Below, in pieces: positions 12,896 to 64,000 of a stretch of 64,000 nt of DNA. The translations under genes and the position numbers were made by a program. Under the pieces are notes generated by a model, which was not told the origin of the DNA, did no database searches, and saw nothing but the letters and a program-made list of their open reading frames with translations. The stretch's first letter is position 1, and every line of letters starts with the position of its first letter. The DNA lies in assembly GCF_037042905.1 (NCBI RefSeq), contig NC_087251.1:27716001-27780000 (forward strand), read 5' to 3'. This DNA is from Lytechinus pictus. Its lineage: Eukaryota.

Positions 12896-13706
12896 GTAAG
12901 AAAATCAACAGTTTTTAGATAGCGTAGATTAGTCTATATATTTACTAATAAGGTACAAATGAGCAGCTGGTTAGTGGTTGCAGTTGGCAAAGCAGAATAT
13001 CACACAGCCCCATCTATTCACTTATTTGTGGTGCGGATACGGTAATCCTACCTCAAGCGATGTTCGTGCAGGCTCCACTCCAGTCTCCACTTCACTACCG
13101 CTACACCACTCCTAGTACCAATGAGGTCCAAACATTACATGTATGGACCTCATAGGCGACATCAGTAGTATTTTTGGTTAGAAATCTCTGAGAACAGGAT
13201 ATTTCTATATTAGGCCTATATCACAAGTACAACTACAAGCTATATTCCTTTCTCTTATTTAAATTATAATTTTATACTAGGCCTATATAGTGTAAATGCA
13301 TCGTTAATAAAAAAATAAAAATGAAAGAAATGAAGGGGAACTTACATTTTCACGGCTTTTTCCTGGTTTTTCTGGGCAGTTGCTCTTCACTTCTGACTCG
13401 CGATCGAAGCTGATAGTGATATGAAGATCACGTGATTCGCGTTCTCGTCAGCTGATCGGTTGATTATTAATTTCGTCAGACGTTAATAATATATATTTTA
13501 TAATGCTAGCATTCATCGCTAATTTAGGTGAAAGAGATTGAAGTTAAACAGCGCCAGGTCGGAATCATAATTATTTTGGAAGAGTGTATTTATACACTCG
13601 ATCTCATACCTGACGTAGACGGCGCTATTCAACAAATGCACAATCTTCAATATAAAAAATAAAACGGAAAGAACGCCTTGAACACAGGCCAAAATGCCTA
13701 ACGATT

Positions 13707-13884
13707 TCTGGGCGTTGTGGCGTGCGCCTGTAATCCAAGCTATGCGGGGAAGTTACAAATTGATGCAGAGGTTCGAGCCCTGGTCACGTCTTTCGGATGG
13801 TGACGTTAAAGGTCGGTCCCAGACGTAAATAATCATATCTGATTGATACACGTCTGACAAAACTCAAATACACACACACACACA
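13707..13884 (+). mobile_element. 7SL-derived (Alu-domain-headed) SINE-like element with (CA)n tail
   Basis: First 42 nt align without gaps to the 7SL 5' end (32/42 against the recalled human sequence); B box GGTTCGAGCCC at 13770-13780; Meta-like GTCTTTCGGATGGTGACGTTAAA; (CA)7 tail. Confidence 0.75.
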
Positions 13885-13947
13885 TTCTCCGCGGCATTAA
13901 CAACTATCGTAAAGGGCGCTCCATTTATTAATAAAGATGGACGTATA

Positions 13948-44855: not shown

Positions 44856-47800
44856 TGTAAACATTGATTAAAGCTTCAAAGGTATTTTAATTGCATTTAA
44901 TGTGTGTGTGGCCATTCTCGCCATCATGTACATACTTATTATTATGTTATCTATTGAGGGATGCTTAGTTCATCTCTGTGAAAATATTTTTGTAATATAT
45001 TTCAAGTTTGTAAATAATCTTTGAGAGATGTTTGAGTTATAAATACTTTGGTTTTCAGAATATATCTCTATTTATTTTGTACATTTCTAACAAGATTGTA
45101 TATACGTATTTGTTTTATACTATTCATTTGACTATCTGGTAGTTCATTGCTTTGTAATGGGCCTCTGTGACTTGTTTTTCCTTTCTGAATATCTTTCATT
45201 TTCAGAAACTATCATTTCATAATTTGTGAATTTTTATTTCTATCTTAAATTTGATGTTGATTTGATTGCATGAATTGAATGGACATATCAAAAGTTATTC
45301 AAATTCATGTTGAATACATCAGTAATTTTTATCACTCACTTCTATGAGGACTATTATTGTCGATCACATTTTTCATAAAAGATTTTATATGACATTACCC
45401 TTATAAAGAAAATAAGACACACATGATGTATTCATGAAATAAAAGAAACTATATTTCATTTTGTATGAAGTAGAATGCACCATCATTCTTTAATTTTCTG
45501 AAATTAGTGTGAAACAAAATGTACCTATCTCCCCTGACATTTTGCTAAGTGGAAGTTAGAGAAATGAAATGTCCCTATGTGACAAGTTCAAGGATAAATA
45601 ATATGCTATGAACTTTTTTAAGTGTACAATACTAAAATTTAATACATTTTCATTTCATTGAAAAAATAAGAATTATTATGCACATCACTATAGGTAGAAT
45701 ACTTGCAAAGTTGTGTATGCAATAATATTTTTAAACTGAGATTTATATCCTATAATTGAAATGTCAACTTGTGTACATTTGACAATATCTGATGTAATAT
45801 TGGCCTCATTCTCTATTGTGTGAAAATATAAATATTTGAAAGTACAATAAGTATTGTGATGTGATATTTATTTATGAAGTTTGTATCAAAGCCGATTTTA
45901 TTTCCTTGTCTTTACGACCCCGCACCCCCTCTCCCCTCTCTTACTCATACGTTTGCACTCTTACTCACTCTATCCTAATCTTTCCCCTCTCTATCTTCCA
46001 ATTCCACAGCACAAAGAGTCAGGATGAACTTTGTCCATATTATTCTTGAATTTATGTACATTTTGTAAGTCTACAGTTAAGCGCAGTGATCCCATTAGGT
46101 CTGTAAGATTACATTTTTTTTTACTTCGCCTTTTTAATGAAAGACTGAAATGCGTTTAAGAGATATTTTCAGTATATTTTGAAATTCTCCGTTTATCCGC
46201 TATTCTCCATCTGCTTTTGTCTCTCTGCCATCTTCATCCACATCTCGTTCCACACACATTCGGCATATTCTCGTTCCTGAATCCTCAATCTCCTTTGCAT
46301 TCATCTCCTCATCTGTTTTAAGTTTAAAACTGTCTTCTCCACCGCCTTAAGATTCATTTTTCAGCTCTTCTGCCTTCCTCCCCCCTTCATCCATGTCTTC
46401 CTCCTCTGACGTCCTCTCTCCCTTCCTCTCTTTTCATCTGTCTTCATCTCCTCTGCCTCTATCCCTCTCCTCTTCCATCTTCAGCCTTTAGCTCATCATC
46501 TGCCAAATCCCTTCCTTTATCCCCTTTTCAAGCCCCTCCCTCTCTGCTTTCCCCTCACCTTTCTTTATCTGTTTTTTTTAGCTCCTCTTTCCCCTCTGTT
46601 CCTTCTGCCTTCCTCTCTTTTTTCTGCTTTCCTCGTCTGCTCCAAAGTCCTCCTTCGTCTCTTCCTTCATCTCGGACTTCAGCTATTCTCCTTTGCCCTA
46701 TTTGTCTTCCTTTCCTTTACCTTCTCCCTTGTTCTTTGTCTTCTCTACATGTATTCCCTCTGTATTTAGCTCCTCCTTCGTCGCCAGAGTTCCTCTGCCC
46801 TTCTCGGTTCTACTTAATTTCTTCCCTTTTCTGTTTTCATCCCATTCTCCCATTCCTCCTCTGTCTCCATCTCCTCTGCTTTGAATAACCAGATTGTATA
46901 TACCTTCATCTTCCTTCATCTCCTATGTTTTTCATCTTCTTTTGCTCAGCCTTCAGATTCTTCGTTACTGCAATCATTCCATCGTCAGCTCAATGTCCAT
47001 TTTAGCTACTCATTTGTCATCATCTACCCTCATTTGTCTTTCCTTTCTTTACTTCCATCACCTCGGCATTCACCTCCTCTATTGCCATCTTCATCTCACC
47101 TGCTTTCACTACTGTTCACCTCTGTTTCAATTCTCCCTCTGCACTCACCCCTATCTTTGTATTCTAATTCCAACTGTATACCACATCTCTTCCTTTATTT
47201 ATTACACTTTTTTTAGTTTGTCCAACCAAACATTGGCTTTTAGAATATAGGCCGACAACACATAACACAATATATCGAGAGTAAATAGTAATGACATAAC
47301 CCTACCTTCAATCGCACCGTTGTCAATGACCCCACCCCTTCGTTTCGTAAAAGACGTACCGTGTTTCATGGTAGAAGTTTGTTGTAAGATTGTTGTAACT
47401 CAGATCAGAACAGAGGCAAGCACCGAAATTCGTTTCAGGGGCATACTTAAAAGTGATGCGAGTGTAACATTGTAACCAAGCGGATCTGAAGCGCGCAATT
47501 AAAATGACATCACAATGTGTGCACTTCACACGTCCCTCCGTACGTCACAACTGAAACATTTTGTAAAGTTTTTGTTCAGAGCGGGCGGAAACGACGGTCT
47601 TCTGTTCCTTAATATTTTGGCCTCCAGCTCGACCTCTCCCACCAATCCCTCCTCTACCGTCTCCATCTAACCTTCATCTCATTCGGTGGCTTCAGATCCA
47701 ATCTTATTCTCAATTCATCATTTTGTCGTCTCGTCTGGTTTCATCCCCGCCGCCTTCATTCACTCTTCCTTCTTGCCAACCACCTTCTCGTCCTTCACTT

Positions 47801-50191
47801 CCTTAATCTTTGCCCTTTTCCTCAACTGGCTTCACCTTTATCTGCTTTCATCTCATCATCTGCCTTTAGCTCCTCTTTCCCCCGATTCATTTTCCTCTGT
47901 CTTCACCCTTCCCCACCGTGTCTTTCAGCCTACACATTCTTAATCTTGTGATTCATCTTCCTGCGTCTTATTTTACTCTGCCTTGAACCGCCATCTTCTC
48001 CTCTTATTCATTCTCTTCTTCCCTTATTACTTTCTAGGCAACCATCTAATCTGTTTCAATCGCCTCCTCTGACTTCATCTCCTCGCCTGCTTTCAGATCG
48101 TCATTAGACTCCTGCCCCACTTCTGCCTTCAACCCTTCTCATCTGCTTTCATCTCCTCCTCTAGCTTTATTTCTAAATTCTGCCTTTATCAACTTCTGGC
48201 CTTCTCCTCCTCGGCCCTTAGCCCCTTCTCTGCTGGTCCATCTACCCTCTGCCTTCATCTCCTCCACTTCTGCTTTCATCTCCTCGGCTTATATCTCATT
48301 TGCTGTCATCTCCTTTAGTTTAATCTTATCTCTTCGTGTGGCTTTGTCTCCTCATTTGCCTTCAGCTCCCCCTTCTCTGCTGCATTCATCCCTTCTTCGG
48401 GCGCTTTCTCTTCTGTCTTAAACCCTCTCTCCCTCGTCCACCTCAGATCATTGGCCGTCATCTCCTCTAGTTTTCCTCCATCTCCCGGGCCCTCAGTTCC
48501 TTTTCTACGGCAGTTTTGCCTCATGTTCTCTGATACGTCTCCTCTTTTATAACTATGCTTTCTGCCTCCGTTTCATTTTCCGCCTTCGCCTCCTTCATTT
48601 CTGCCTTCTTCTCCTCGGCATTCACCTGTTTTCTATCTGCCTCCATCTCCTGGGCATTCACCTCCTTTAACTCTTCCTTCACCCCCTCATCGGCTTTCAC
48701 CTCCTTAACTTCTACCGTCAACTCCTCTTCGGACTTCATCTCCTTTTTTCTCTGCCTCAATCTCCTCGGCATTCACCTCCTTTATCCCTGTCTCTATCGC
48801 CTCGTCGTTCACCACCTTAATATCTGCATTCGTCTCCTCGGCATTCACCTCCTTTATCTCTGCCTCCGTCTCCTCCTCGGTCTTCACCTCTTTCAACTCT
48901 GCTTTCGTCTCCTCCTCGGCATCCACTTCATTTACATCTGCATTCGTCTGTTTTTGTCTTTCTCGGCATTCATCGCCTGCATCTCTTCGGATATGACCTC
49001 CTTTATTCCTGTCCCCATCTCCTCTGCATTCACCTCATTTATATCTGCCTCCTCCTAAGCCTTCACATCCTTTATATCTGCGTCCGTCTCCTCTTTGGCC
49101 TTCACCCCTTTTCTCTCTGCCTCCGTCTCCTCTGCCTTCACCCCTTTTTTCTCTGCCTCCGTCTCCTCCTCGGCCTTCACCTCCTTTATTTCTGCCTCCG
49201 TCTCCTCCTCGGTCTTCACCTCATTCAACTCTGCCTTCGTCTCCTCCTCGGCATCCATTTCCTTTGTATGTATGTGTTTTTCCCGGCGTTCATCTCCTTC
49301 AACACGGACTTTTTCTCCTTCTTGTTATTTACATATTTTAAATCTACCTCCATTTCCTCCTTAGTATTCTCCTCCTTTTGTCTGCCTTCGTCACTACGTC
49401 TATTCCTCGGCCTTCCCCTCCTTTACCTCCAATCTTCCCGGATATTCAATCCTTTTATCTCTGCCCCATCTCCTTGACCTTCACCTCCTTTATGTCTGTC
49501 TTCGTCTCCTCCTCGGCATTCACCTCCTTTATACCTGCCCGAATCCCCATGGCTTTCACCTCCATTTCTCTGCCTTCGTCCGTTCGTCTCTTCCTCGGCA
49601 TTTACCCCTATTATCTCTGCCCCCATCTCTTCGGCTTTGACCTCCTTTTTCTCTCCCCTCATCTCTTTGGCTTTGACCTCCTCTTTCCCTGCTCCCATCT
49701 ATTCGGCTTTGACCTCCTTTATCTCTGCCCTCATCTCCTCGGCCTTCACCTCCCCTCTATCTGCCTTGATTTGCTTTGATTTGATTTATTTAAACACGGT
49801 GGAATAGCCTTCGATCAGTAAATGGCTGATTTTCAGAGAGGCCGTGCATGTAATACATTTAAGCGTATAATGTATCATAAAGTAAACTAATAAAACAAAA
49901 CTTGTATATACAACCAAACAAAAGGGGGTAGTGAAAGAAAACAAACAAAAACAACAATTAGGGGAAAAGGGGGATAATCAAGATTTCAGGACTTATTCAA
50001 ATTTATTTCCACATATGATTAAGAACAAAAATTCATATGCAGATGTATATACAATATTGAAACATTAAAATGAAACATATTCAGTTCGAAGTAATAATCT
50101 GGTGGGAATTGACAGAGGCCGAAAGCCTATCAGAGTTATTCCCGAAGGTAACTAACTTTACATGATTTTTTTAAAAAAATATTTACATGAT

Positions 50192-51713
50192 TTTACATGG
50201 CTTTAACTTCGAATATTATGAAGTGTTTTGAGAGGTTGCTATTGCCATATTTGTTGAAACAAACTAAGGAATTCACAGACCCATTTCAATTTGCGTACAA
50301 GCAGAATAGAAGCGTGGAAGATGGTGTACTTGTATATTTGCATCAAATATATGAGCACTTAGATAGACCAAAGACATATGTTCGTTCTCTTTTTGTAGAT
50401 TTTAGTAGTGCTTTTAACACAATCGCACCCCATCTTTTAGCTCGCAAATTGATTAGGATGAATGTAGACCTTAAACTAATTAGATGCATACATAACTTCT
50501 TGGTAGGTAGAACACAGTATGTAAAGACGAATTGTCACCAATCAAGCACTGTTACCACTTACATAGGTGCCCCCCAGGGGTGTGTCCTCTCCCCGGTATT
50601 GTTTTCTCTTTACACAAGCGATTGCGTGAGTACAACTTCTTGCTGCAGCATTCTTAAATATGCTGATGACACAGTCATTATTGCACTATTGTCGAATCAG
50701 GTTAGCGATTATTTCTCACAAGTAGACAAATTCATTCGTTGGTGCGACGACCATTACTTAACACTGAATACAACCAAAACCAAGGAAATGGTTATTGACT
50801 TCCGTCGAAATGGTGCAGAGCACGAGAATGTAATCATTCATGATCAGGTGATCGAACAAACCAGCAGCTATAAGTACTTGGGAACAGTAATAGACGACAA
50901 ATTGTCATGGAGGGAGAACGCGCAGTTGGTTTATGGGAAGGCTTGCAAGAGGTTGTACTTTCTCCGCAAGTTAAAATCCTTCCATGTTGACAACACAATA
51001 TTAACTCTGTTCTATAATTCAGTTATTAAAAGTGTCCTTCTCTTCAATGTATTATGTGTATTTGGCAATCTCTCAAAAGATGACAAGATGAAACTGGAAA
51101 AGCCCCGTAAATAGCGCAAAGAATAATAGGAGTAGATTTAGCCTCTATCGAATCCCACTGTACAGATCAGATCTTAGGAAAAGTCCGCTTAATTATGAAA
51201 GACACTTCTCATCCACTTAATCATTACTACTCATTCAATCGTTCTGGCATAAGACTTCGTCCCACTCCAACCCGCCTTTCCCGTTTTAGAAATTCATTCA
51301 TACCCGACTCTATCCACAAATTCAATTCACAAGCTCAACGTTAAATAAACTTCTGTTCCCAGCGAAATGATGAACTTATGTACTGATATCCCGGAAAGTT
51401 TCATGATAATGATAATAGTTATATTAAAGCAATAGTAGTGATGATGATGGCAACAATAATAATGATAATAATAATAATGTCAATAATAATTATAACAATA
51501 TTTGAATGCTAATAATTTTGATAAGTATTCTGGATGACTCAAACTTTTGCAAATGTTTTGTTGTATTTGCTTCATACCTGTGTAACTTATTTGTTTCTTT
51601 GTTTGATTTTGTTCATGCATGTCTAATGTATATTACACCAGTGGAAAACAAATTTCTTTGTAATCATGTTTGCGAAGACAAAATAAATATCTTACCTGTC
51701 TTGTATATCTTGT
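50192..51713 (+). mobile_element. 5'-truncated Rex1/Babar-type non-LTR retrotransposon
   Basis: RT ORF, AT-rich 3' UTR, AATAAA followed by a short TCTTG-type tail, ATGAT duplication at 50187-50191 and 51714-51718; absent from paralogous host copies. Confidence 0.88.
50197..51344 (+). pseudogene. Reverse transcriptase ORF (Rex1/Babar-like), 5'-truncated, one frameshift near 51110
   Basis: Motifs ALTS..MKCFER, DPFQFAYK.NRSVED, FVDFSSAFNTI, GAPQGCVLSP, YADD, LNTTKTKEMVIDFRR; the C-terminus continues in a shifted frame (IAQRIIG...DTSHPL...FRNSFIP) to TAA 51342-51344. Confidence 0.9.
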
Positions 51714-54700
51714 ATGATAACATGTTTAAAACACAAAACTAGAAGAAAAAAAAACACATATCATTCAAGGATATAAATAAAATAAGACAAGGACGACCAG
51801 ACACCTAAACTTTAAATTGAAATAAATTAAGATTTGGTACTTTGCGAATAAGTTTTTCCAATGAATTGAACTCAAGTATAAAAAGAAAAAAGGCTGCTAT
51901 TTCGTGCGAAGTCTGTTTTTGCAGTTTGTTAGCTCATTATTATTATTATTATTGTTTGGAGGGGCTCTTTTTTAGTTTTTGAGTGGGTGGGTGGTATGTT
52001 GCCTAAGGGAATCATATTACATAAAAAGACAATAAGAGCTTAAGGAGTAACATAGATATTAGCATGATTGCTTTCCACCTGTGTAGGATGCTTTCAGCAT
52101 TCAATTAGGCGCATAATGCTGATGTGCTGAACAAAGAATCAACTTTTAGCAGAGTTCGAAGGGCTATATTCTACATTACATATTATATATATTCTATTCT
52201 ATATATATTCTATATTCTGCATTTTTCCAGATATATGAACAATAATCAAAGTAAGGTAGAATAAGCATTTGTACAATGACATACCAATATCTTGAGATAT
52301 ATATGGTCTATCCTTGCCCCCCCCTTCTCCTCGGCATTCATCAAATTTATATCTGCATTCATCCCCTCCTAGGTCTTCACCTCATTCAATATCTGCCTTC
52401 GTCTCCTCCTCGGCATCCACTCTCTTTGTATGTATGTGTTTTTCTCGGCGTTCATCTCCTTCAACACGGCCTTTGTCTCCTTCTTGTTGTTTACATATTT
52501 TAAATCTACCTCCATTTCCTCCTTAGTGTTCACTACGTCTATTCTTCGTCCTTAACCTCCTTTTCCTCAAATCTCCCCGGATATTCAATCCTTTTATCTC
52601 TGCCCCATCTCCTTGACCTTCACTTCCTTTATGTATGTCTTCGTCTCTTCCTCGGCATTCACCTCCTATATACCTGCCCAAATCCCCATGGCTTTCACCT
52701 CCATTTTCTCTGCCTTCGTCCGTTCGTCTCTTCCCCTTTTATCTCTGCCCCCATCTCTTCGGCTTTGACCTCCTTTATCTCTGCCCTCATCTCTTCGGCC
52801 TTCACCTCCATTATCTGTGCATTTGTCTGCTCCTCGAAATTCACATCCTTTATCTATACCTTCGTCTCTTCCTTGGCACTTGCCTTCTTTATCTCTGCCT
52901 TCGTCTCCTCTTCGGTTTTGACCTCCTTTATCTCTGCCCACATCTCTTCTCGGCCTCCACCTCCATTATCTGTGCATTTGTCTCCTCGAAATTCACCTCC
53001 TTTATCTGTACCTTCGTTTCTTCCTCGGCACTTGCATTCTATATCTCTGCCTTCGTCCCCTCTTCAGCTTTGACCTCCTTTATCTCTGAACACATCTTCT
53101 CGGCCTTCACCTGTAAGATCTGTGCATTTATCTGCTCCTCGAAATTCACCTCCTTTCTCGATACATTCGTCTCTTCCTCGGCACTTGCATTCTTTATCTT
53201 TGCCTTCGTCTCCTCTTCGGTTTTGACCTCCTTTATCTCTGCCCACATCTCTTCTCGGCCTCCACCTCCATTATCTGTGCATTTGTCCCCTCGAAATTCA
53301 CCTCCTTTATCTGTACCTTCGTTTCTTCCTCGGAACTTGCATTCTATATCTCTGCCTTCGTCCCCTCTTCGGCTTTGACCTCCTTTATCTCTGCCTACAT
53401 CTCTTCTCGGCCTCCACCTCCATTATCTGTGCATTTGTCTCCTCGAAATTCACCTCCTTTATCTATACCTTCGTCTCTTCCTTGGCACTTGCCTTCGTTA
53501 TCTCTGCCTTTGTCTCCTCGGCATTCACATCCATTACCTTTGCCTCCGTCTCCTCCTTGGTCTTTACCTCTCTCAACTCTGCCTCCTTTTACTCCTCGTC
53601 ATCCACTTCTGTTGTATCTGCATTCGTCTGTTTGTGTCTTTCTTGGCATTCTGCATCTCTTCGTATTTGAACTCCTTTATCCCTGCCGCCCCCTTCTCCT
53701 CGGCATTCATCAAATTTATATCTGCATTCATCCCCTCCATGGCATTCACTTCATCTATCTCTGCCCCAATCTCTTCAACATTCCCCTTCATTTTCTCTGC
53801 TTTCGTCAGTTCGTCACCATTTCGGTCTTCACCTCCATTATCCCTGTCCTCATCTCCTCAGCCTTTACCTCCTTTATATCTGCCTCCGTCTCCTCGGCCT
53901 TTACCTCCTTAATTTCTGCCTCCGTCTCCTCCTCGATATCCACCTCCTTTATCTCTCCCTCCGTCTCCTCCTCGGCCACGACCTCCTTTATCACCGCCTC
54001 CGTCTCCTCGGCCTTCACCTCCTTTATCTCTGCCTTAATCCCCCTCGGCATCCTCTTCCTTTGCATCTGCCTTCGTCTGTTTGTGTCTTTCTCGGCATTC
54101 ATCTCCTCCATCGCTGCCTCCGTCTTCTCCTCGGAATGTATCTCCTTCAACACTGTCTTTGTCTGCTTCTTGGTATTCACCTAGTTTAAATCTACCTCCA
54201 TTTCCTTCTTAGTATTTTCCTCCCTTTCTTTGCCTCCGTCTCCTCGTCCTGCACCTCCTTTTTATATGCCTCCGTCTCCTCCTCGGTCTTCACCTCCTTT
54301 ATATCTGCCTTTGTCTCCTCCTCGGTCTTCACCTCCTTTTTCTCTGCCTCCGTCTCTTCTTCTGCCTCCGTCTCTTCTTCTGCCTTTAACTCCCTTGTCT
54401 CTGTCTCCGTCTCCCCCTCGGCCTTCACCTCCTTTATCTCTGCCTTAGTCTCCCCCTCGGCATCCACTTCCTTTGCATCTGCCTTCGTCTGTTTGTGTTT
54501 TTCTCGGCATTCATCTCCTCCATCCCTGCCTCCGTCTTCTCCTCGGCGTCTATCTCCTTCAACCCTGCCTTTGTCTGCTTCTTGGTATTCACCTATTTTA
54601 AATCTACCTCCATGTCCTTCTTAGTATTTTCCTCCCTTTCTCTGCCTCCGTCTCTACGTGTATTCCCCGGCCTTCATCCCTTCATCTCTGCCCTCATCTC

Positions 54701-55639
54701 TTCGACTTGACTTTGACCTCTTCTATCTCTGCCCCCATCTCCTCGGCCTTCATCTCCATATCTGTGCATTTGTCCCCTCCTTGACATTCAACTCCTTTAT
54801 CTATACCTTCGTCTCTTCCTTGGCACTTGCCTTCTTTATCTCTGCCTTCGTCTCCTCTTCAGCTTTGACCTCCTTTATCTCTGAACACATCTTCTCGGCC
54901 TTCACCTGTATTATCTGTGCATTTATCTGCTCCTCGAAATTCACCTCCTTTCTCGATACATTCGTATCTTCCTCGGCACTTGCATTCTTTATCTCTGCCT
55001 TCGTCTCCTCCTTGGCATTCTCCTCCTTCAGATCAAAACAAAGCACTAAAATCACTTCATGGATCATCCAAGACAATAATGAGAATTTACAGAAAACATT
55101 GTAACCAGGCAAAACTGAAGCGCACAATTAAAATGACATCACAATATGCGCACAGTAAACATCTTAACTGACGTCACAACTGAAATTTTTGTAAAATATC
55201 TGTTTCAAGGGGTGGGTCGACTGTTTCTTTTTCAAGTTTTATGTCAGCAATGAACAGGAAAAGACAATATCGTAGTCGTACACAAAATTATTCTTCTAAC
55301 TGGAGGGACTTATTCGGTATTTGTGGAAACAAGCAGAATTGCAGGGCATGAAATTAAAATGTAGGGTATATTGCTTTTTTGAGGGATGCCGCACGTCTTT
55401 TAAATTTTTTTGTTCGAAGGAGGGGGTGGCATAATAATTATTTGGGATACTTTGGCATCTTAATGTTTGTAAAATTAAGGCTTAAAAAATACTTAAACGT
55501 CAGACATTAGAGCACATTTTCCATCATCAACGGCTTTAGCTCTTAATTGCAGCAGGAGCAGGGGGAAATGTGGTTTATACCCCCCCCCCCTTCCTTGCAA
55601 TTACATTGACAATGCTGGATCCGCCAGATCTAGTTGCCT

Positions 55640-55864
55640 ATTCAATCGCGCCCTGTATATATTACCCCGACTTCAGCTCCAGCTCCTAACGGCGTTTGGT
55701 GCATTCACAGAATTAAATCGTGCCGGGCACCCAATCACCTCACCTAAGACGAGTGCACAGCACAATGCGGATCAAGTTCTTGCTAAAGGAAATCTCGCGA
55801 TGGCTGGGATTCGAACCCATGACGTTCGGTTTCAAGGTCCAGAGGTTAATCCAAGGGCCACACT
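55640..55864 (-). mobile_element. tRNA-derived SINE, older copy of the family at 5189
   Basis: Reverse complement reads TGTGGCCCTTGGATTAACCTCTGGAC...GGGTTCGAATCCCAGCCAT...ATTGTGCTG. Confidence 0.8.
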
Positions 55865-56305
55865 GTAAATAAAACAAATGTTGCCAGAGGTATTAGACCT
55901 TATAAATTATCTCATGAAAATTGCTCAACTCTAAAGTCATTCCCATGCGTCAAGCTCAATTATCTTTGACTTTGTCTCCTCCGAATTCACCTTCGCCTTA
56001 ATCTCCTCCGTATTTACCTTCATTATCTCTGCCTTTGACTCCTTCCGGCATTCAATCAATTTAAATCTGCCTCCATCTCCTCGGCATTCTTCTCTTTTTC
56101 TCTGCCTTTGTCAGTTCATCTCCTCCTCGGTATTCACCTACTTTAAATATGCCTCCTTCATCTCCTCGGCATTTTCCTCCTTTATTCCTGCCCTCGTCTG
56201 TGTTTTCTCGGTGTTCATATCCTTTAGACCTTATAAATCTCTTCGACTTTGACCTCCTTTATTTCTGTTCCCATGTCCTCTGCCCTCACCTCTTTTTTCT
56301 CTGCC

Positions 56306-56440
56306 TTGATTTAATTTGATTTTTTTTCTACATGGTGGAATAGCCCTCGATCAACAAATGAGAGATTTTCAATTTTAATAAAACAAAATTACATACATAA
56401 CCATAAAAGGGGTTGATGAAAGAAACATAACACCCCATTT
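56306..56440 (-). mobile_element. CR1/L2-group LINE tail, copy B (short, deleted)
   Basis: GATTTAATTTGAT..GGTGGAATAGCCCTCGATCA.. homologous to copies A, C and D. Confidence 0.6.
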
Positions 56441-57927
56441 ATCTCTGCCTTCGTCTCCTCCTCGGCATTCACCTATTTTAAATCTGCCTCCATCTCCTCC
56501 TTGGCATTTCGACTCCTTTTCTCTGCCTTCGTTAGTTCGTCTTTGCCTCTTTTTATCTCGGCCCAAATCCCGTCGGCCTTCACCACTTTTATTTGTCCCT
56601 TCGTCTCTTCATCGGCATTCACCTCTTTTATCTGCTTCTCAGCATTCACCTTCTTTATATCTGCCTTCGTTTCCTCCTCTGCATTAACCAATTTTATCTC
56701 TGCCGTCTCCTCCTTCCCCTTCACATACTTTATCTCTGCATGCCTTCGTCTCCTCCTCGGCCTTCACCCCTTTTATCTCTGCCCCCATCTCTTCGGCTTT
56801 GACCTCCTTTATCTCTGCTCCAATTCCCTCGGCCTTCACCTCCTTATCTGTGGTTTTGTCTCCTCGGTATTCACCTACATCATCGGAGCATTCGTCTTCT
56901 CTTCGGCATTCACCTCCTTTGTATATTCTTTAGTCTCTTTCTCGGCGTTCATATTCTTTATCTCTGCCCTAATCTCCTCGATATTCACCTAAATTATATT
57001 TGCCTTCATCTCCTCCCCTGCATTCAATTGATTAAATCTGCCTCCATCTTCTTCTCGGCCTTCACCCAGTTCAACTCTGCCTTCGTCTCTTTCTCGGCAT
57101 TCACCTCCTTTATCTCTGCCTTCGTCTCCTCGGCATTCCCCTTCTTTATAACTGCCTTTGCCTTCTTTTCTGCATTCGCCTTCTTTATCTCTGCCTTCGT
57201 CTCCATCTCGGCATTCGCATTCTTTATCTCTGCTTTCGTCTCCTCCTCGGCATTTGTTTTCTTTATCTCTGCCTTCGTCTCCTTCTCGGCATTTGCCTAC
57301 TTTATCTCTGCTCTCGTCTCCTCCTCGGCATCCGTTTTCTTTATCTCTGCTTTCGTCTCCTCCTCGGCATCCGTTTTCTTTGTATCTGCCTCCGTTTCCT
57401 TCTCGGCACTTGCCTTCTTTATCTCTGCCTTCGTCTCCTTGGCATTCGATTTCTTCATGTCTGCTTTCGTATCCTCCTTCGACTTCATCTCCTTCAACTC
57501 TGCTTTCGTCTCCTCTTCGGCATCCATCTCTTTATATATCTGCCTCCGTATGTTTTGTCTTTCTCGGCATTGATCTCCTTCATCTCTGCCTCTGTCTCCT
57601 CCTCGTCATTCATCCCCTTCAACAGTGCCTTAATCTCCTCCTTGGCATTCACCTATTTTATATCTACCTCCGTCTTCGCCTTGGCATTTTCCTCCTTTTC
57701 TGTGCCTTCGTCACTACGTCTATTCTTGCCTCCCTTATCTATGCCGAATTCTCCTTGGCTATTCCCTCCTTTTTTTCTGCCACATCTCCGTGGCCTTCAC
57801 CTTCTTCATGTTTGTCTTCGTCTCCTCCTCGGCATTCACCTCCTTAATACCTGCATCCATCTCTTCGGCTTTGACCTCCTTTGTCTCTGCCCCCATCTCC
57901 TTGGTCTTCACCTCCCTTTTCTCAGCG

Positions 57928-59347
57928 TTGATTTGATTTGACTTGATCTATATCAACACGGTGAAACGGCCTCCGATCAGCGAATGGCTGATTTCCTGAG
58001 AGGCCGTACATGTAATATACAAACAGTACACCGAATAGTAATTCATAACAAAATAAACTAATATAACAAAAACTTATATACATGTACATAACCAAGAGAA
58101 AGGGGTGGTGAAAGAAAACAAACAAAACGACAATAATTACGTTTTAAAAACATGATAATCAAGATTTCAAGACTTTTCAATCCAATTCAAATTTATTTCC
58201 ACATCTGAGTAAACAGACAAGTACAAATCCATATGCAGATATATTTATACAATAATAAAACAATGAAATGAAACATAATGAGTCCGAAATTATAATATAG
58301 TGTGAATTGAGACACGCAGAAGGCCTATCAGGGTGATTCCCGAAGGAAATTGAATTTACATAAAACATTTTTGTTCAGTTACATAATAACATGTTTAAAA
58401 TACCAAACTAGAAAAAAAACCATGTCATTCAGACATATAAATGTAGTAAAACAAGAACGACCAAACACTAAAACTTCAGATTTAAGTGAATTAAGATCTG
58501 GTACTGTGCGAATATGTTCTGCCAATTATCACAACTGAAGTATAAAAATATAAAGGCTGCTATTTCGTACAAAGTCTTTTTTGGAGTTTGTAATATCATT
58601 ATATTGTGTTTTTATTTGGGGGGGGGGGGGTATGAAGTAGGTGGATGGTACATTGCTTAAGGGTAATCCTAGTATGCATAAAAAAGTCGGTAACATGATT
58701 GCTTGTTTTTTTTTTCATCTGAGAAGGATGGTTTCAGCATTCAATTTGGTGTAAAATGCTGATGTGCTGAAAAAAAAAAACTTTTAGCACAATTCGAAGG
58801 CCTCTATTCCACATTGCAACGAGGCGATCAATTTGAGTTTTCTCTGCATATCTCCAAATATATGAACAATAATCAAAGTGGGGTAGAATAAGACAATTAT
58901 ACAATGGCATGGCAGTATCTTCAGATATATATGGTCTAACGTGTTTTAAGCAGTAGACTTGAAGTTATTTTGCTCTTCATCTCATCAATTTGGTCACTCC
59001 ATGTAATATTTTCATTAACATTTGTCCATACGATTTATAGGAAAATATTCATCTTGATCTGAACATTAGCAAACTGACGTTGTTTGCGTTTTGAAGAAAT
59101 TATCATATATTCACATTTGCTTTTATTCAATAATAATTCATTGCCACCGATGTAATTGCCAATATTTATTCAAATCTTCATTGATTTTACGTTCAAGTTA
59201 AATTGGGTCATTGTAAGCAAAATGAAGGCATGAATTATCGGCATAAAGTGATAATGTACTTTGCCGAACATCTTTGGATATATCATTTGAATACATTAAA
59301 AAAAATAATCGAGCCAATGATACTTCCTTTGTGTACTCCGCAAATAA
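57928..59347 (-). mobile_element. CR1/L2-group LINE 3' fragment, copy C
   Basis: Tail plus RT remnant (minus-strand ICGVHKGSIIGSIIF, a decayed GVPQGSILGPLLF). Confidence 0.8.
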
Positions 59348-61389
59348 CCTTCGTCTCCTCGACATTCATCTCCTTAAAATCTACCTTCGTCTCCTCCTCG
59401 GCATTCACCAATTTGATCTCTGCCGTCTCCTCTCTCCCGTTCACATCCTTTATCTCTGTCTTCGTGTCCTTCTCGACATTCAACTCCATTATCTCTGCAT
59501 GCCTTCGTCTCCTCCTTGGCCTTCATCCCTTTTATCTCTGCCCCATCTCTTCGACTTTGACCTCCTTTATCTCTGCCCCGATCCTCTCGGCCTTCACCTC
59601 CATCATCTATTCATTTATCTCCTCGGCATTCACATCCTTTATCTCTGCCCTCCTTGGCATTCACCTCATTTATATCTGTCTTCGTCTCCTCCTCGTCATC
59701 CACTTCTTTTATATCTGCATTCGTCTGTGTCTTTCTTGGTATTCATCTCCTGCATCTCATCGGATTTTAAGTCCTTTATCCCTGCCCCCTTCTCCTCGGC
59801 ATTCATCTAATTTATATCTGCCTTCAAGCCCTCCTCGACATTCGCCTTCATTTTCTCTACCTTCGTTAGATGACCTTCACCTTCGCCTCCTTTTTTTGTG
59901 GCTCGGCATTCACTTACTTTAATTATTCCTCCTTTATTTCTGCCCTCGTCTGTTCGTGCCTTTCTCGGTATTCATATCCTTTACGTATGCCTTCGTCTCC
60001 TCCTCGGTATTTACCTATTTTAAATCTGCCTCCATCACCTCCTTGGCATTCTTCTCCTTTTCTCTGCCTTCGTCAGTTCGTCTTTTCCTCGGCCTTTGCC
60101 TCCTTTATCTCTAGCCAAATCTTCTCGGCCTTCACCTCCATTATCTGTGCATTTGTCTCCTCATAGATATTTACCTCCTTTATCTACACCTTCGTCTCTT
60201 CCTCGGCACTTGCCTTCTTTATCTCTGCCTTCGTCTCCTCTTCGGCTTTGACCTTCTTTATCCCTGTCCCCATCTCCTCAGTCTTCACCCTCTTTATCTC
60301 TGCCTCCGTCACCTCCTCGGCCTTTACCTCCTTTATCTCGGCCTTTACCTCGGCCTTCACCTCTTTTATCTCTGGCTTGGTCTTCTCCTCGGCATTCCTT
60401 TATTTTACATATGCCTCCTTCAACTCCTTGGCATTTTCCTCCTTTATATTTGCCCTCGTCTGTTCGTTTCTTTCTCGGTATTCATATCCATCACCTATGC
60501 CTCCATCTCCTCCTTGACATTCTTCTCATTTTCTATGTCTTCGTCAATTCGTCTTTTCTTCGCCCTTTGCCTCTTTTTATATCGGCCCAAGTCCCTTCGG
60601 CCGTCACCTCCTTTAACTCTGTCTTTGTCTGATTCTCAGCATTCACCTCCTTTATATCTGCCTCCGTCTCATCCTCGGCATTCACCTCGTTCGTATCTGC
60701 CTTCGTTTCCTTTCCGGCATTTATCTCCTTTATCTCTTCCCCAATCTCCTCGGCATTCACCACCTTTATTTCTGCTTTCGTCTCTTTCTTTGCCTAACCT
60801 CCTTTATATCTGCCTTCGTCTCTTTCTCGGCAGGCATTTGCCTTCTTTATCTCTGCCTTCGTCTCCTTGGCGTCCGTTTTCTTTATCTCTGCTTTCGTCT
60901 CCTCTTCGGCATCAACCTCTTTATATGTGCCTCCGTATGTTTGTGTCTTTCTCGGCATTGATCTCCTTCATCTCTGCCTCCGTCTTCTCCTTGTCATTCA
61001 TCCCCTTTAACACTGCCTTTGTCTCCTTGGCATTCACCTTTTTTATATCTACCTTCGTCTTCTCCTGGGCACTCTCCTCCTTTTATCTGCCTTCGTCACT
61101 ACGTCCATTCTCGCCTTCCTTATCTCTGCCCCATTTTCCTTGGCTATCCCCTCCTTTTTTCTGCCACATCTCCTTGGCATTCACCGTCTTTATGTATGTC
61201 TTCGTCTCCTCCTCGGCATTCACCTCCTTAATACCTACCCCAATCTCCTCGGCATTCACCTCCATTTTCTCTGCATTCGTAATTTTGTCTTTTCCGCGAC
61301 TTAACCTTTTTATCTCGTCCCCATCTCTTCGGCTTTGGCCTCCTTTATATCTGCCCCGTCTCCTCGGCCTTCACTTCCTTTTTTTCTGC

Positions 61390-62690
61390 TTTGATTTGAT
61401 TTGATCGCTATTAACACGGTGCAACAGCCTTCGATCAGCGAACGGCTGATTTCCAGAGAGAGGCCGTGCATGTAATATACAAACAGTACAACGAATAATA
61501 AATAACAAAATAATCTAATAAACAAAAACTTATATACATAACCAAAAGAAAGGGATGGTGAAGAAAAAAAAAACAATTATGTTTAAAAAAAGGATAATCA
61601 AGATTTCAAGACTTTTTAATTCAATTCAGATTTATTTCCCATCTGATTACAAAGACAAGTACAAATTCATATGTAGATATATATCATATACAATAATAAA
61701 ACAAACAAAAACAGAAACATATTGAGTTCGAAATAATAACATGGTGTGAATTGAGAGAAGCCGAAGGCGTATCAGGGTGATTTCCAAAGGTAATTGAATT
61801 TACATAAAATGTTTATATATATATATATATATATTTACATAATAACATGTTTAAAACTAGAAAAAACCTTGTCATTCATAAATATAAACATAATAACACA
61901 AGGACGATCAAACACCCCAACTTCAGATTCAAATGAATTAAGATTTGGCACTGTGCGAATATGTTTTGCTAATTAACTGAACTCGTGTATAAAAAGATAA
62001 AAGCTGCTATTTCGTACAAAATCTGTTTTGGAGTTTGTAATCTCATTATATGTTTTTTTTTTAAGTTTTGGAGTAGGTGGGTGGTACATTTACATTGCTT
62101 AAGGGTAATCCTATTATGCATAAAAAAGTCGGTAACATGATTGCTTGTTTTTTTTCCATCTGAGAAGGATGGTTTTAGCATTCAATTTGGTGTATAACTC
62201 TGATGTGCTGAAAAAAAAATTAGCACAGTTCAAAGGCCTCTATTCTACATTACAATGAGACGATCAATTTAAGTTTTTCCTGCATATCTCCAAATATATG
62301 AACAAACTGACGGTGTTTGCGTTTTGAAGAAATTTTGTCACTCCATGTAATATTTTCATTTAAATTTGTCCATACGATTTAAAGGAAATTTATTCTTCTT
62401 GGTCGGAACATTAGCAAACTGACGTTGTTTGCTTTTTGAAGAAATTATCATATATTCACATTTGCTTGTATTCAATAATAATTCATTGCCACGGATGTCA
62501 TTGGCAATATCATTCAAATCTTCATTGATTACGTTCAAGTTCAATTGGGTCATTGTAAGCAAAATTAGGGCATGAATTATCGGCATAAAGTGATAATGTA
62601 CTTTGCCGAACAACTTTGGATATATCATTTGAATACATTATAACAAAATCATTGAGCCAATGATACTTCCTTAAGGACCTCCGCAAATAA
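61390..62690 (-). mobile_element. CR1/L2-group LINE 3' fragment, copy D
   Basis: RT remnants LSLYADN, NEDLNDI..NELLLNTSKCEYMII in minus-strand ORFs 62356-62704. Confidence 0.8.
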
Positions 62691-64000
62691 ATATCTCTCG
62701 TCATTCACCTAAATTATATTTGCCTTCATCTCCTCCCCGGCATTCAAGTAATTAAATCTGCCTCAATCTTCTCCTCGGCCTTCACCCCGTTCAACTATGC
62801 CTTCGTCTCTTTCTCGGCATTCACCTCCTTTATCTCTGCCTTCGTCTCCTCGGCATTCGCCTTCTTTATCTCTGCCTTCGTCTCCTTCTTGGCATTCGCC
62901 TTCTTAATCTCTGCTTTCGTCTCATCCTCGGCATTCGTTTTCTTTATCTCTGCCTTCGTTTCCTACTCGGCATTTGTCTTCTTTATCTATGCCTTCGTCT
63001 CATTTTCGGAATTCACCTTCATTATCTCTGCCTTCGTCTCCTCGGCATTCGCATTCTTTATCTCTGCTTTCGTCTCCTACTTCGACTTCACCTCCTTCAA
63101 CTCTGCCTTCGTCTCCTCCTCGGCCTTCACTCCTTTTATATCTGTCCCCTTCTCTTCGGCTTTGATCTCCTTTATCTCTGCTCCAATTTCATCGGCCTTC
63201 ACCTCCATTATCTGTGGTTTTGTCTCCTCGGTATTCACCTCCATCTTCTGTGCATTCGTCTTCTCATCGGCATTCACCTCCTTTGTATATTCTTTAGTCT
63301 CTTTCTCGGCGTTCATATCCTTTATCTCTGCCCTAATCTCCTCGATATTCACCTAAATTATATTTGCCTTCATCTCCTCCCCGGCATTCAAGTAATTACA
63401 TGTGCCTCCATCTTCTCCTCGGCCTTCAGCTCGTTCAACTCTACCTTCGTCTCTTCTCGGCATTCACCACCTTTATCTCCGCCTTCGTCTCCTCGGCATT
63501 CGCCTTCTTTATATCTGCCTTCGTCTTCTTTTCGGCATGTGCCTTCTTCATCTCTGCCTTCGTTACCTCCTCGGCATCCGTTTTTTTTTTGTCTCTGCCT
63601 TCGTCTCCTCCTCCGCATTCGCCTTCTTTATCTCTGCCTTCGTCTCCTTGGCATTCGCCTTCTTTATCTTTGACTTCGTCTCCTCCTTCAACTCTGCCTT
63701 CGTCTCCTCTTCGGCATCCATCTCTTTATATATCTGCCTCCGTATGTTTAGTCTCTCTCGGCATTAATCTCCTTCATCTCTGCCTCTGTCTCCTGCTCGG
63801 CATTCATCCCCTTTGACGGTGCCTTTGTCTCCTTCTTGGTATTCACCTATTTTATATCTACTTCCGTCTTCTCCTTGGCACTCTCCTCCTTTTATCTGCC
63901 TTCGTCATTACGTCTATTCTCGCCTCCCTTATCTCTGCCCAATTCACCTTCGCCATCCCCTCCTTTTTTCTGCCACATCTCCTTGGCCTTCACCTTCTTT

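Follow-up and report, generated by a model that had tools for sequence, protein, structure and literature searches.

The locus considered here, positions 13707-13884 of a 64,000-nt stretch of Lytechinus pictus DNA (contig NC_087251.1, positions 27,716,001 to 27,780,000 of the forward strand; the whole stretch is hereafter called the window), raises the question of whether a short interspersed element (SINE) with a head taken from 7SL RNA exists in this genome and, if so, where the head came from and how the element spreads. SINE heads derived from 7SL RNA are famous through Alu, yet they are extremely rare. According to the analysis below, positions 13707-13884 are likely to be one copy of a dispersed non-autonomous retroposon of SINE type, about 177 nt long, in a sea-urchin genome; this assessment covers the identity of the element and the general mechanism of retroposition and excludes the step involving SRP9/14, proteins of the signal recognition particle. 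That the family is a 7SL-headed SINE born in this lineage is considered highly probable, and the family is young and probably still active. The element is a mosaic of a 7SL head, a linker of about 30 nt carrying a B box, a hairpin domain of about 40 nt resembling the Deu/Nin-DC domain and a stem-loop tail of about 50 nt ending in AACTCAAATA(CA)n. All features described below lie on the plus strand unless otherwise indicated.

Origin of the head from host 7SL RNA

The element begins with TCTGGGCGTTGTGGCGTGCGCC (in a longer reading, TCTGGGCGTTGTGGCGTGCGCCTGTAATCC), and its head (13707-13753) corresponds to nt 1-45 of the host 7SL RNA, that is, to the complete 5' Alu domain with helix 2 and hairpins 3 and 4, as established by cmscan with RF00017 and by alignment to the host 7SL genes. 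The Rfam model Metazoa_SRP matched positions 13707-13764 (25.1 bits, E = 9.3e-5, E-value mode), and the match spanned helices 2-4 of the Alu domain and was followed by a deletion of 250 model positions. A score of this size falls short of the gathering threshold of 70, which is normal for a fragment, and no Rfam family reached its gathering score in the whole 64-kb window; a weaker match to mir-1268 covered the same bases and is not independent. A copy of an older subfamily gave a stronger match to Metazoa_SRP (34.3 bits, E = 1.2e-7). The covariance model also drew a helix-5-like stem in the older subfamily, but it did so from non-homologous sequence (11 of 15 pairs standard), and little weight is attached to it. 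The 7SL likeness noticed in the original prediction thus exceeds chance, and the Rfam match is restricted to the Alu domain, as had been anticipated there.

The host genome contains seven full-length 7SL genes (272-283 bits), which begin with ACCGGGCGTTGTGGCGTGCGCCTGTAATCCAGCTAC; the gene at L037 begins with ACTGGG. Comparison with these genes showed that, from 7SL nt 1 onwards, the older-subfamily copy L038 agrees with the genes at L034 and L031 at 38 of 40 positions; the L004-type master, which has the sequence of the window copy, is identical at 34 of 34 positions to the gene at L037. The run GGGCG...TCCA is identical to all seven host genes over 28/28 to 30/30 positions. In helix 2, the pairing ACU...AGU (U3 and its partner A) is common to the SINE and the L037 gene, whereas the other six genes have ACC...GGU; ACU...AGU is a compensatory change preserving helix 2. 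Contrary to what had been stated at first, the alignment is not free of gaps, since the young subfamily, the window copy included, carries an extra A at element nt 31 relative to the host 7SL sequence. Because the head matches the host 7SL genes over perfect runs of this length and shares the helix-2 variant of L037, an independent birth in this lineage, already suggested in the original prediction, is supported.

The SINE and 7SL sequences diverge after GGAAGU (7SL nt 45). Local alignment of the remainder of the element (nt 47 to the end) with the remainder of 7SL RNA (nt 45 to the end), using representatives of three subfamilies against two 7SL genes with 500 shuffles each, gave p = 0.03-0.6, which is not significant, and a 7SL ancestry of the linker and body was therefore rejected. 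Judged from these alignments, the complete 5' Alu domain (45-47 nt) is kept and no other part of 7SL RNA.

The same data bear on the possibility of an ordinary tRNA-derived SINE (SINE2 or DeuSINE) with a 7SL likeness arising by chance or convergence. The element does combine a canonical B box with a body resembling Deu/Nin, which is also the make-up of tRNA-headed DeuSINEs, and in the B-box region of older subfamilies 4 of the 5 pairs of a T-arm-like stem can be drawn; nevertheless, the identity to 7SL from its first nucleotide, the perfect runs of 28-30 nt, the cmscan E-value of the older copy and the lack of a tRNA-headed sibling at about 90% identity or more (see below) make this explanation very improbable. 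That the genome belongs to an echinoderm, as had been supposed from the sequence, is supported by a strong match to Bindin (PF02084, 236.7 bits), a sea-urchin sperm protein family that was matched in 0 of 14 control genomes; the match points to an echinoid.

Within the head, TGGCGTGCGCC (13718-13728) occupies the position of the 7SL/Alu-type A box and presumably has this role; in 7SL RNA, the A box is placed at nt 6-15 (Kojima 2020, PMC7245038). The U-turn motif UGUAAU (13729-13734), which aligns to the consensus CCUGUAAu, lies between the two hairpins, and the loop motifs UGGC and GCUA are both present. The element contains no S-domain of 7SL RNA and no internal terminator. All the sequence features first reported for this element, namely, its start, UGUAAU, the UGGC and GCUA motifs, the B box, the central hairpin, the (CA)7 tail and the absence of an S-domain, were found at the coordinates given for them.

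Two observations concern the surroundings of the host 7SL genes. In six of the seven genes (L031-L036), a B-box-like sequence, GGTTCGAGTC, is located 20-50 nt past the T-run and is followed by another T run, whereas L037 lacks it; this downstream GGTTCGAGTC may be an extragenic TFIIIC site, and its likeness to the B box of the SINE is too short for kinship to be judged. On contig 10, where 7SL genes are arranged in tandem (L031, L035 and L036), each of the three units has an old SINE copy of about 80-88% identity that has suffered internal deletions and stops about 33 nt before the 7SL start; at L031 a second copy is located farther upstream.

Dispersal, age and insertion of the family

A DNA search of the organism's own 812-Mb genome yielded 1635 first-look candidates, of which the best 40 were scored. 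All 40 of these best matches were 98-100% identical over about 177 nt, and among the 39 that were not the window copy itself, 20 were 100% identical. The family is therefore multi-copy, as predicted, and the element is not a single chimeric pseudogene. A 35-nt pattern across the head junction and a 35-nt pattern from the tail matched the genome 808 and 1342 times, respectively, at up to 3 mismatches, whereas the reversed-pattern controls gave 0 matches for both; the copy number is put at about 800-1600, or roughly a thousand. The excess of tails over heads fits 5' truncation, and tail-only copies of 35-57 nt were seen directly; quicker decay of the CpG-rich head may also add to this excess. 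The flanks of 27 copies, distributed over many contigs, were different at every locus, although several of these copies sit within the same host repeat families, and the 27 copies had common boundaries, (A/G/T)CTGGGCG...(CA)n. With a length of about 177 nt, occurrence on many contigs and unrelated flanks, the family agrees with the SINEBase description of a SINE as an interspersed, non-tandem repeat shorter than 1 kb, and the 808 head and 1342 tail patterns agree with its copy-number requirement (PMC3531059).

This dispersal makes it extremely improbable that a one-off chimeric 7SL retropseudogene was spread by segmental duplication or that the assembly was contaminated with human Alu. A few copies do lie in duplicated blocks, namely, dimers of the L039/L040 type at at least five loci and a tandem array on contig 15, but hundreds of copies have unrelated flanks, short duplications of their own, (CA)n tails of variable length and random 5' truncation points. 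Contamination is further contradicted by a head that fits the 7SL RNA of the host and not just 7SL RNA in general, and by a body and tail unlike those of Alu. The dimers at L039, L040 and at least five similar loci are arranged head to tail, with heads 190 nt apart, in a larger repeated block whose flanks are identical at several loci. In the copy at L048 the 7SL head has been rearranged into inverted repeats of head sequence.

Alignment of 53 near-full-length copies, a sample biased towards best-scoring copies and copies found with indel-sensitive patterns, revealed older subfamilies with a 7-nt duplication, GA(A/G)GTTC GAGGTTCGA, in the linker, and with CCAGCTAC as in 7SL RNA. In the youngest subfamily, to which the window copy belongs, the duplication has disappeared and the extra A at nt 31 has been acquired. 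Decayed copies with 76-88% identity were also found (L050 and L057), which shows that a family that is probably active today also has a long history. Of 13 sampled words of the element, 77-92% were present in public sequencing runs of two organisms (12 runs from 5 studies and 2 runs from 1 study, respectively), whereas RNA runs labelled as sea urchin, echinoderm or other metagenomes contained fewer than 5 sampled words, which is too few to count as evidence.

Target-site duplications of 5-10 nt (e.g., CCCTAAAG and TTCAA) were found in 5 of 39 copies, against about 0.5 expected by chance for duplications of at least 5 nt when the 12 offset combinations tried are allowed for; duplications of at least 4 nt occurred in 12 of the 39 copies, and 20 had no duplication of at least 3 nt. 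At the window copy, a candidate 4-nt duplication, TTCT (13885-13888, no strand assigned), has its upstream counterpart at 13706-13709; taken alone it is weak, as a 4-nt match easily arises by chance, and the upstream TTCT shares its last three bases with the start of the element, which means that the window copy may start at 13710. Among the copies, short duplications, 5'-truncated members and a tail varying from (CA)2 to (CA)14 were thus all observed. This combination, with the simple repeat placed behind a stem-loop, is typical of SINEs mobilised by sequence-specific long interspersed elements (LINEs) other than L1. The short duplications seen at some copies, together with the truncated copies, point to LINE-mediated insertion.

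In 52 de-duplicated flanks, which include two 7SL genes caught through the head, the base before CTGGGCG was A in 36 cases and the base preceding it was A in 27, both being enriched; the first A before CTGGGCG probably corresponds to 7SL nt 1. A CA-rich target site was considered and rejected (upstream CA in 15 of 52 flanks versus a background of 21%, p = 0.13). Four other host repeats were each hit independently, in different copies, at positions only a few bases apart (L005/L011/L017; L008/L021; L009/L018/L024; L010/L013), one of these repeatedly hit host repeats being a tandem repeat of about 120 bp. At L013 and L039, insertion took place at the tail of an earlier SINE copy. At L041, about 230-530 nt upstream of the SINE copy, there is a SINE from a different family with a tRNA head (GTGCCGTGGTGTAGCGGTT...GGGTCGTGTATTTGAATCCC...).

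Linker, central domain and tail

The linker (13754-13782) shows no significant similarity to 7SL RNA after nt ~46. It carries the B box GGTTCGAGCCC (13770-13780), which is kept in all subfamilies and fits the box-B consensus of RNA polymerase III (Pol III), GGTTCGANNCC, perfectly. This box occupies element nt 64-74, in agreement with the earlier statement that a B box lies about 60 nt past the A-box-like start. A tRNA derivation of the linker is possible, as the T-arm-like stem mentioned above can be drawn there in older subfamilies. A search for a tRNA-headed sibling or parent with anti-head and anti-linker patterns gave 60 and 27 scattered matches, respectively, with no recurrent alternative head, and the genome pattern search as a whole detected no tRNA-headed sibling with the same linker or body at an identity of about 90% or more.

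The central domain (13783-13822) contains the hairpin GTCACGTCTTTCGGATGGTGAC (13783-13804) and resembles the 5' part of the Deu/Nin-DC domain in a by-eye alignment to BivaMD-SINE1_TeGr. The original prediction had compared this hairpin with the central domain of MetaSINEs, which is not supported, since the Meta-domain is a different sequence and the match lies in the Deu part of BivaMD-SINE1. In the description given in PMC4824008, the Meta-domain comprises 66 bp directly after the tRNA head, and the part of BivaMD-SINE1 following it is the Deu-domain. Visual comparison revealed nothing in the element that corresponds to the Meta-domain stretch of BivaMeta-SINE1 and BivaMD-SINE1, whereas the Deu part of BivaMD-SINE1, GTCACGGTTCTTTCGGATGGGAACTTAAAATAAACGAGGTCCC, and the sequence of the element, GTCACGTCTTTCGGATGGTGACGTTAAAGGTCGGTCCC, agree in about 31 of 44 columns, among which are one perfectly matching 12-mer and one perfectly matching 6-mer (counted by eye rather than computed). 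The common pattern is GTCACGG.TCTTTCGGATGG..AC.TTAAA...GGTCCC, and the likeness spans only the 5' ~40 nt of the domain. On the basis of this pattern, assignment of the central domain to the Deu/Nin-DC type is moderately favoured. The mollusc-type Deu motif occurred once in the genome. Echinoderms are listed among the hosts of both the Nin and Deu domains (Table 1 of PMC5804259), and a literature search for the hairpin sequence gave no match. The idea of a chimeric 7SL/Meta family held for its multi-copy nature, its 7SL head and its lack of an S-domain, but not for its Meta part; with a 7SL head and no Meta-domain, the element falls outside the definition of a MetaSINE.

The tail is predicted by both minimum-free-energy and centroid folds to form a stem-loop, CAGACGT...ACGTCTG, with an inner stem AATCA/TGATT (13820-13856). 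It is followed by the terminal motif ACAAAACTCAAATA (13857-13870), which is common to all copies, and by the (CA)7 simple-repeat tail (13871-13884).

Possible mobilisation and relation to known SINEs

By analogy with Alu and other SINEs, the source copies would be transcribed by Pol III from the 7SL-type A region and the B box, with a start at or beside the base matching 7SL nt 1 and read-through into flanking T runs. The reverse transcriptase of a LINE unlike L1 would then recognise the stem-loop and (CA)n tail, and insertion would proceed by target-primed reverse transcription. In addition, the 46-nt Alu-domain head could bind SRP9/14, park the RNA at ribosomes and capture the nascent LINE protein there, as proposed for Alu. 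In Alu, a mutagenesis study reported that the 46-nt 5' Alu domain is needed for retrotransposition, associates with SRP9/14 and is able to promote one round (Moldovan et al., PMC11760393); the 7SL piece kept in the element is equally long and stops at the closure of helix 2. An exon of SRP14 was found in the genome (30.6 bits). If the element is taken as a 7SL-headed SINE of this lineage, the analogy with Alu puts action of the head through SRP9/14 close to, but somewhat short of, an even chance.

Alternatively, the head may have been kept solely as a Pol III A box and start site with a stable, protected 5' structure; SRP9/14 would then play no part, and recognition by the LINE would depend on the stem-loop and (CA)n tail alone, as in the tRNA-headed SINEs of stringent LINEs. 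This explanation is plausible, although we would not put it above a minority share of the probability. The element has its own structured tail (as predicted), so docking is not required, and stringent-type LINEs are described as recognising structured SINE tails (Kojima 2020, PMC7245038); the separate canonical B box that was added is likewise indicative of selection on promoter function. On the other hand, a bare A box needs only about nt 5-15, whereas the 7SL piece in the element stops exactly at the closure of the 5' Alu domain (3' strand of helix 2, nt 45), the compensatory pair in helix 2 is kept, and helix 3 and UGUAAU are constant across the sampled subfamilies while the linker varies, albeit in a small and biased sample. 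A unit of 46 nt is, moreover, the functional SRP9/14-binding unit of Alu according to PMC11760393.

Returning to the favoured explanation, a 7SL-headed SINE presumably spread by a LINE, a number of results weigh against it. The folding energy of the whole element was no better than that of its shuffles (z from -0.2 to +0.7 over the whole element and the 50-nt heads), and among four 50-nt heads, two from SINE copies and two from 7SL genes, all of which formed two hairpins in the minimum-free-energy folds, none folded better than its own shuffles; the structural support rests on the covariance model and the 7SL identity. The overlap with 7SL RNA, which is 95-100% identical but only 45-47 nt long, falls below the SINEBase threshold of at least 60% identity over at least 60 nt to tRNA, 5S or 7SL RNA, a threshold to which the SINEBase paper admits exceptions where Pol III transcription has been shown (PMC3531059). 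In 27 of the 39 copies, the target-site duplication was shorter than 4 nt, so that most copies are unconvincing in this respect. SRP9 was not detected by a six-frame family search, which is unable to exclude a small multi-exon gene.

Finally, no partner LINE was found with seven SINE-excluding patterns placed from the head-linker junction to the tail (0-60 matches each), and none of 15 LINE 3' regions, or of two further copies of one of them, resembled the SINE tail. The patterns consisted of 28-32-nt pieces behind bases that exclude the SINE itself, five being used at up to 3 mismatches and two as exact patterns. Five body and tail patterns gave 0, 2, 48, 18 and 22 matches, and all those inspected were truncated or indel-bearing SINE copies. 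No recurrent foreign upstream sequence appeared among the matches of the seven patterns; there is thus no repeat family that contains such a piece at an identity of about 90% or more behind a different upstream sequence. Likewise, no LINE shares at least 29 nt of the tail at about 90% identity, weaker similarity being outside the reach of these genome patterns. The LINE 3' regions were taken from an RVT_1 search (best 150 of 12239 candidates scored); seven of them have poly(A) tails, in others the tail consists of (AAACT)n or (AAACTG)n, of (AAAC)n or of (AAATC)n, and the rest have no clear tail in the stretch taken.

Several further observations were made during the search for a partner. The window itself contains a decayed LINE, an open frame of 307 codons at 50191-51114 (+) with a reverse-transcriptase fragment carrying a YADD motif; this degraded reverse transcriptase was rejected as a partner, being unrelated and having a 3' region unlike the SINE tail. 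The search with the terminal motif revealed a second short retroposon-like family of about 85 nt, CATGGGCGGAAATCTC...CTAACTCAAAC(AC)n (L096-L099; at least 13 listed loci), which has a T5 run and no recognisable small-RNA head and for which no LINE relative was found at about 90% identity. The similar ends of the SINE and of this family hint at a common partner reading ...AACTCAAAY(AC)n. Elsewhere in the window, a long run of overlapping low-complexity open frames rich in S, L, F and P extends over about 46300-64000 (+) and is suggestive of an extensive tandem or minisatellite array, not of genes.

Compared with known families, the element resembles Alu and B1 (SINE1, Euarchontoglires) in having a 7SL head from the first nucleotides without the S-domain, in keeping the 5' Alu hairpins, the U-turn and the A-box region, in having a B box about 50 nt downstream of the A region and in lacking an internal terminator. 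Alu and B1 keep 7SL nt 1-63/76-83 and nt 267-299 and consist of 7SL sequence and poly(A) only (Kojima 2020, PMC7245038), whereas the element keeps nt 1-45 only, has its B box in sequence that is not demonstrably 7SL and possesses a body of foreign origin as well as a (CA)n tail with predicted structure, which implies that its partner is probably not a poly(A)-reading LINE of the L1 type. Of the two SINE1 features given by Kojima (2020), a 5' head from 7SL RNA is present, but the combination of both the 5' and 3' terminal 7SL segments with a central deletion is not, the 3' segment being absent. The original comparison with Alu was therefore apt for the 7SL-derived 5' head but not for the paired 5' and 3' segments, as only the 5' 45-47 nt are kept.

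The hagfish family SINE1-1_EBu is similar in that a 7SL head arose independently in a non-mammalian lineage, in being a chimera with a SINE/LINE-type body and tail, and in its simple-repeat tail, its non-L1 partner (presumed for the present element) and its similar copy number (2363 copies, PMC13023118). The hagfish head combines a 5' with a 3' region of 7SL, and the hagfish tail is matched by RTE-2_EBu (Kojima 2020, PMC7245038), whereas the element has no 3' 7SL region, no LINE or tRNA-headed parent was found for it and its host is an invertebrate deuterostome. The type II Tu elements of tree shrews, whose left unit is described as being of dual 7SL and tRNA origin (PMC13023118), are possibly comparable in having a hybrid promoter composed of a 7SL 5' part and a B-box part of other, perhaps tRNA, origin; the Tu elements differ in their descent from supraprimate SINE1 and in their use of L1.

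To DeuSINE/Nin-DC elements such as BivaMD-SINE1, the element bears a by-eye likeness in the central hairpin domain GTCACG..TCTTTCGGATGG..AC.TTAAA..GGTCCC, but those elements have tRNA or 5S heads, and their domain is 70-330 bp long (PMC4824008) versus about 40 nt matched here; the sea-urchin element SINE2-3_SP is another example of this group. The MetaSINEs SINE2-1_SP and SINE2-2_SP likewise occur in sea urchins and have a modular structure of head, conserved domain and LINE tail, and BivaMeta-SINE1 ends in ...AAATCCAAATC(AC)n, but in MetaSINEs a tRNA head is followed by the 66-bp Meta-domain (PMC4824008).

The hagfish family was presented as the first SINE1 outside Euarchontoglires (Kojima 2020, PMC7245038), SINE1 was later stated to be known only from primates, rodents and hagfishes (Kojima 2024), and the report on the shrew-mole family gives supraprimates and hagfish as the only earlier sources of 7SL SINEs (Kosushkin et al. 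2026, PMC13023118). As described in these sources, the hagfish and shrew-mole SINEs retain a 3' 7SL segment, as do Alu and B1 (Kojima 2020, PMC7245038; Kosushkin et al. 2026, PMC13023118). In the literature up to 2026, no echinoderm 7SL SINE was found, although Repbase, Dfam and SINEBase or older descriptions of sea-urchin SINEs (SURF1, Nisson 1988) may hold the family under another label. The echinoderm family would thus be the first 7SL SINE outside vertebrates. We know of no earlier 7SL SINE with the 5' Alu domain alone.

The boldest reading, which is less likely than not and draws on the analogy with Alu, is that an invertebrate independently assembled an Alu-like parasite by joining precisely the minimal 46-nt domain of its own 7SL RNA that binds SRP9/14 to a tail of stem-loop and (CA)n that is recognised by a non-L1 LINE. 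If the head does act through SRP9/14, nature would have repeated the deletion experiment that set the minimal Alu domain in HeLa cells. Operational definitions of SINEs based on a 60-nt RNA overlap would miss such heads. Being young and apparently active, and belonging to animals that are easily handled in the laboratory, the family is a natural system for asking whether SRP9/14 docking aids a SINE of a sequence-specific non-L1 LINE. If the head does work through SRP9/14, docking at the ribosome would be a general, repeatedly found route of SINEs to LINE proteins, across phyla and LINE clades.

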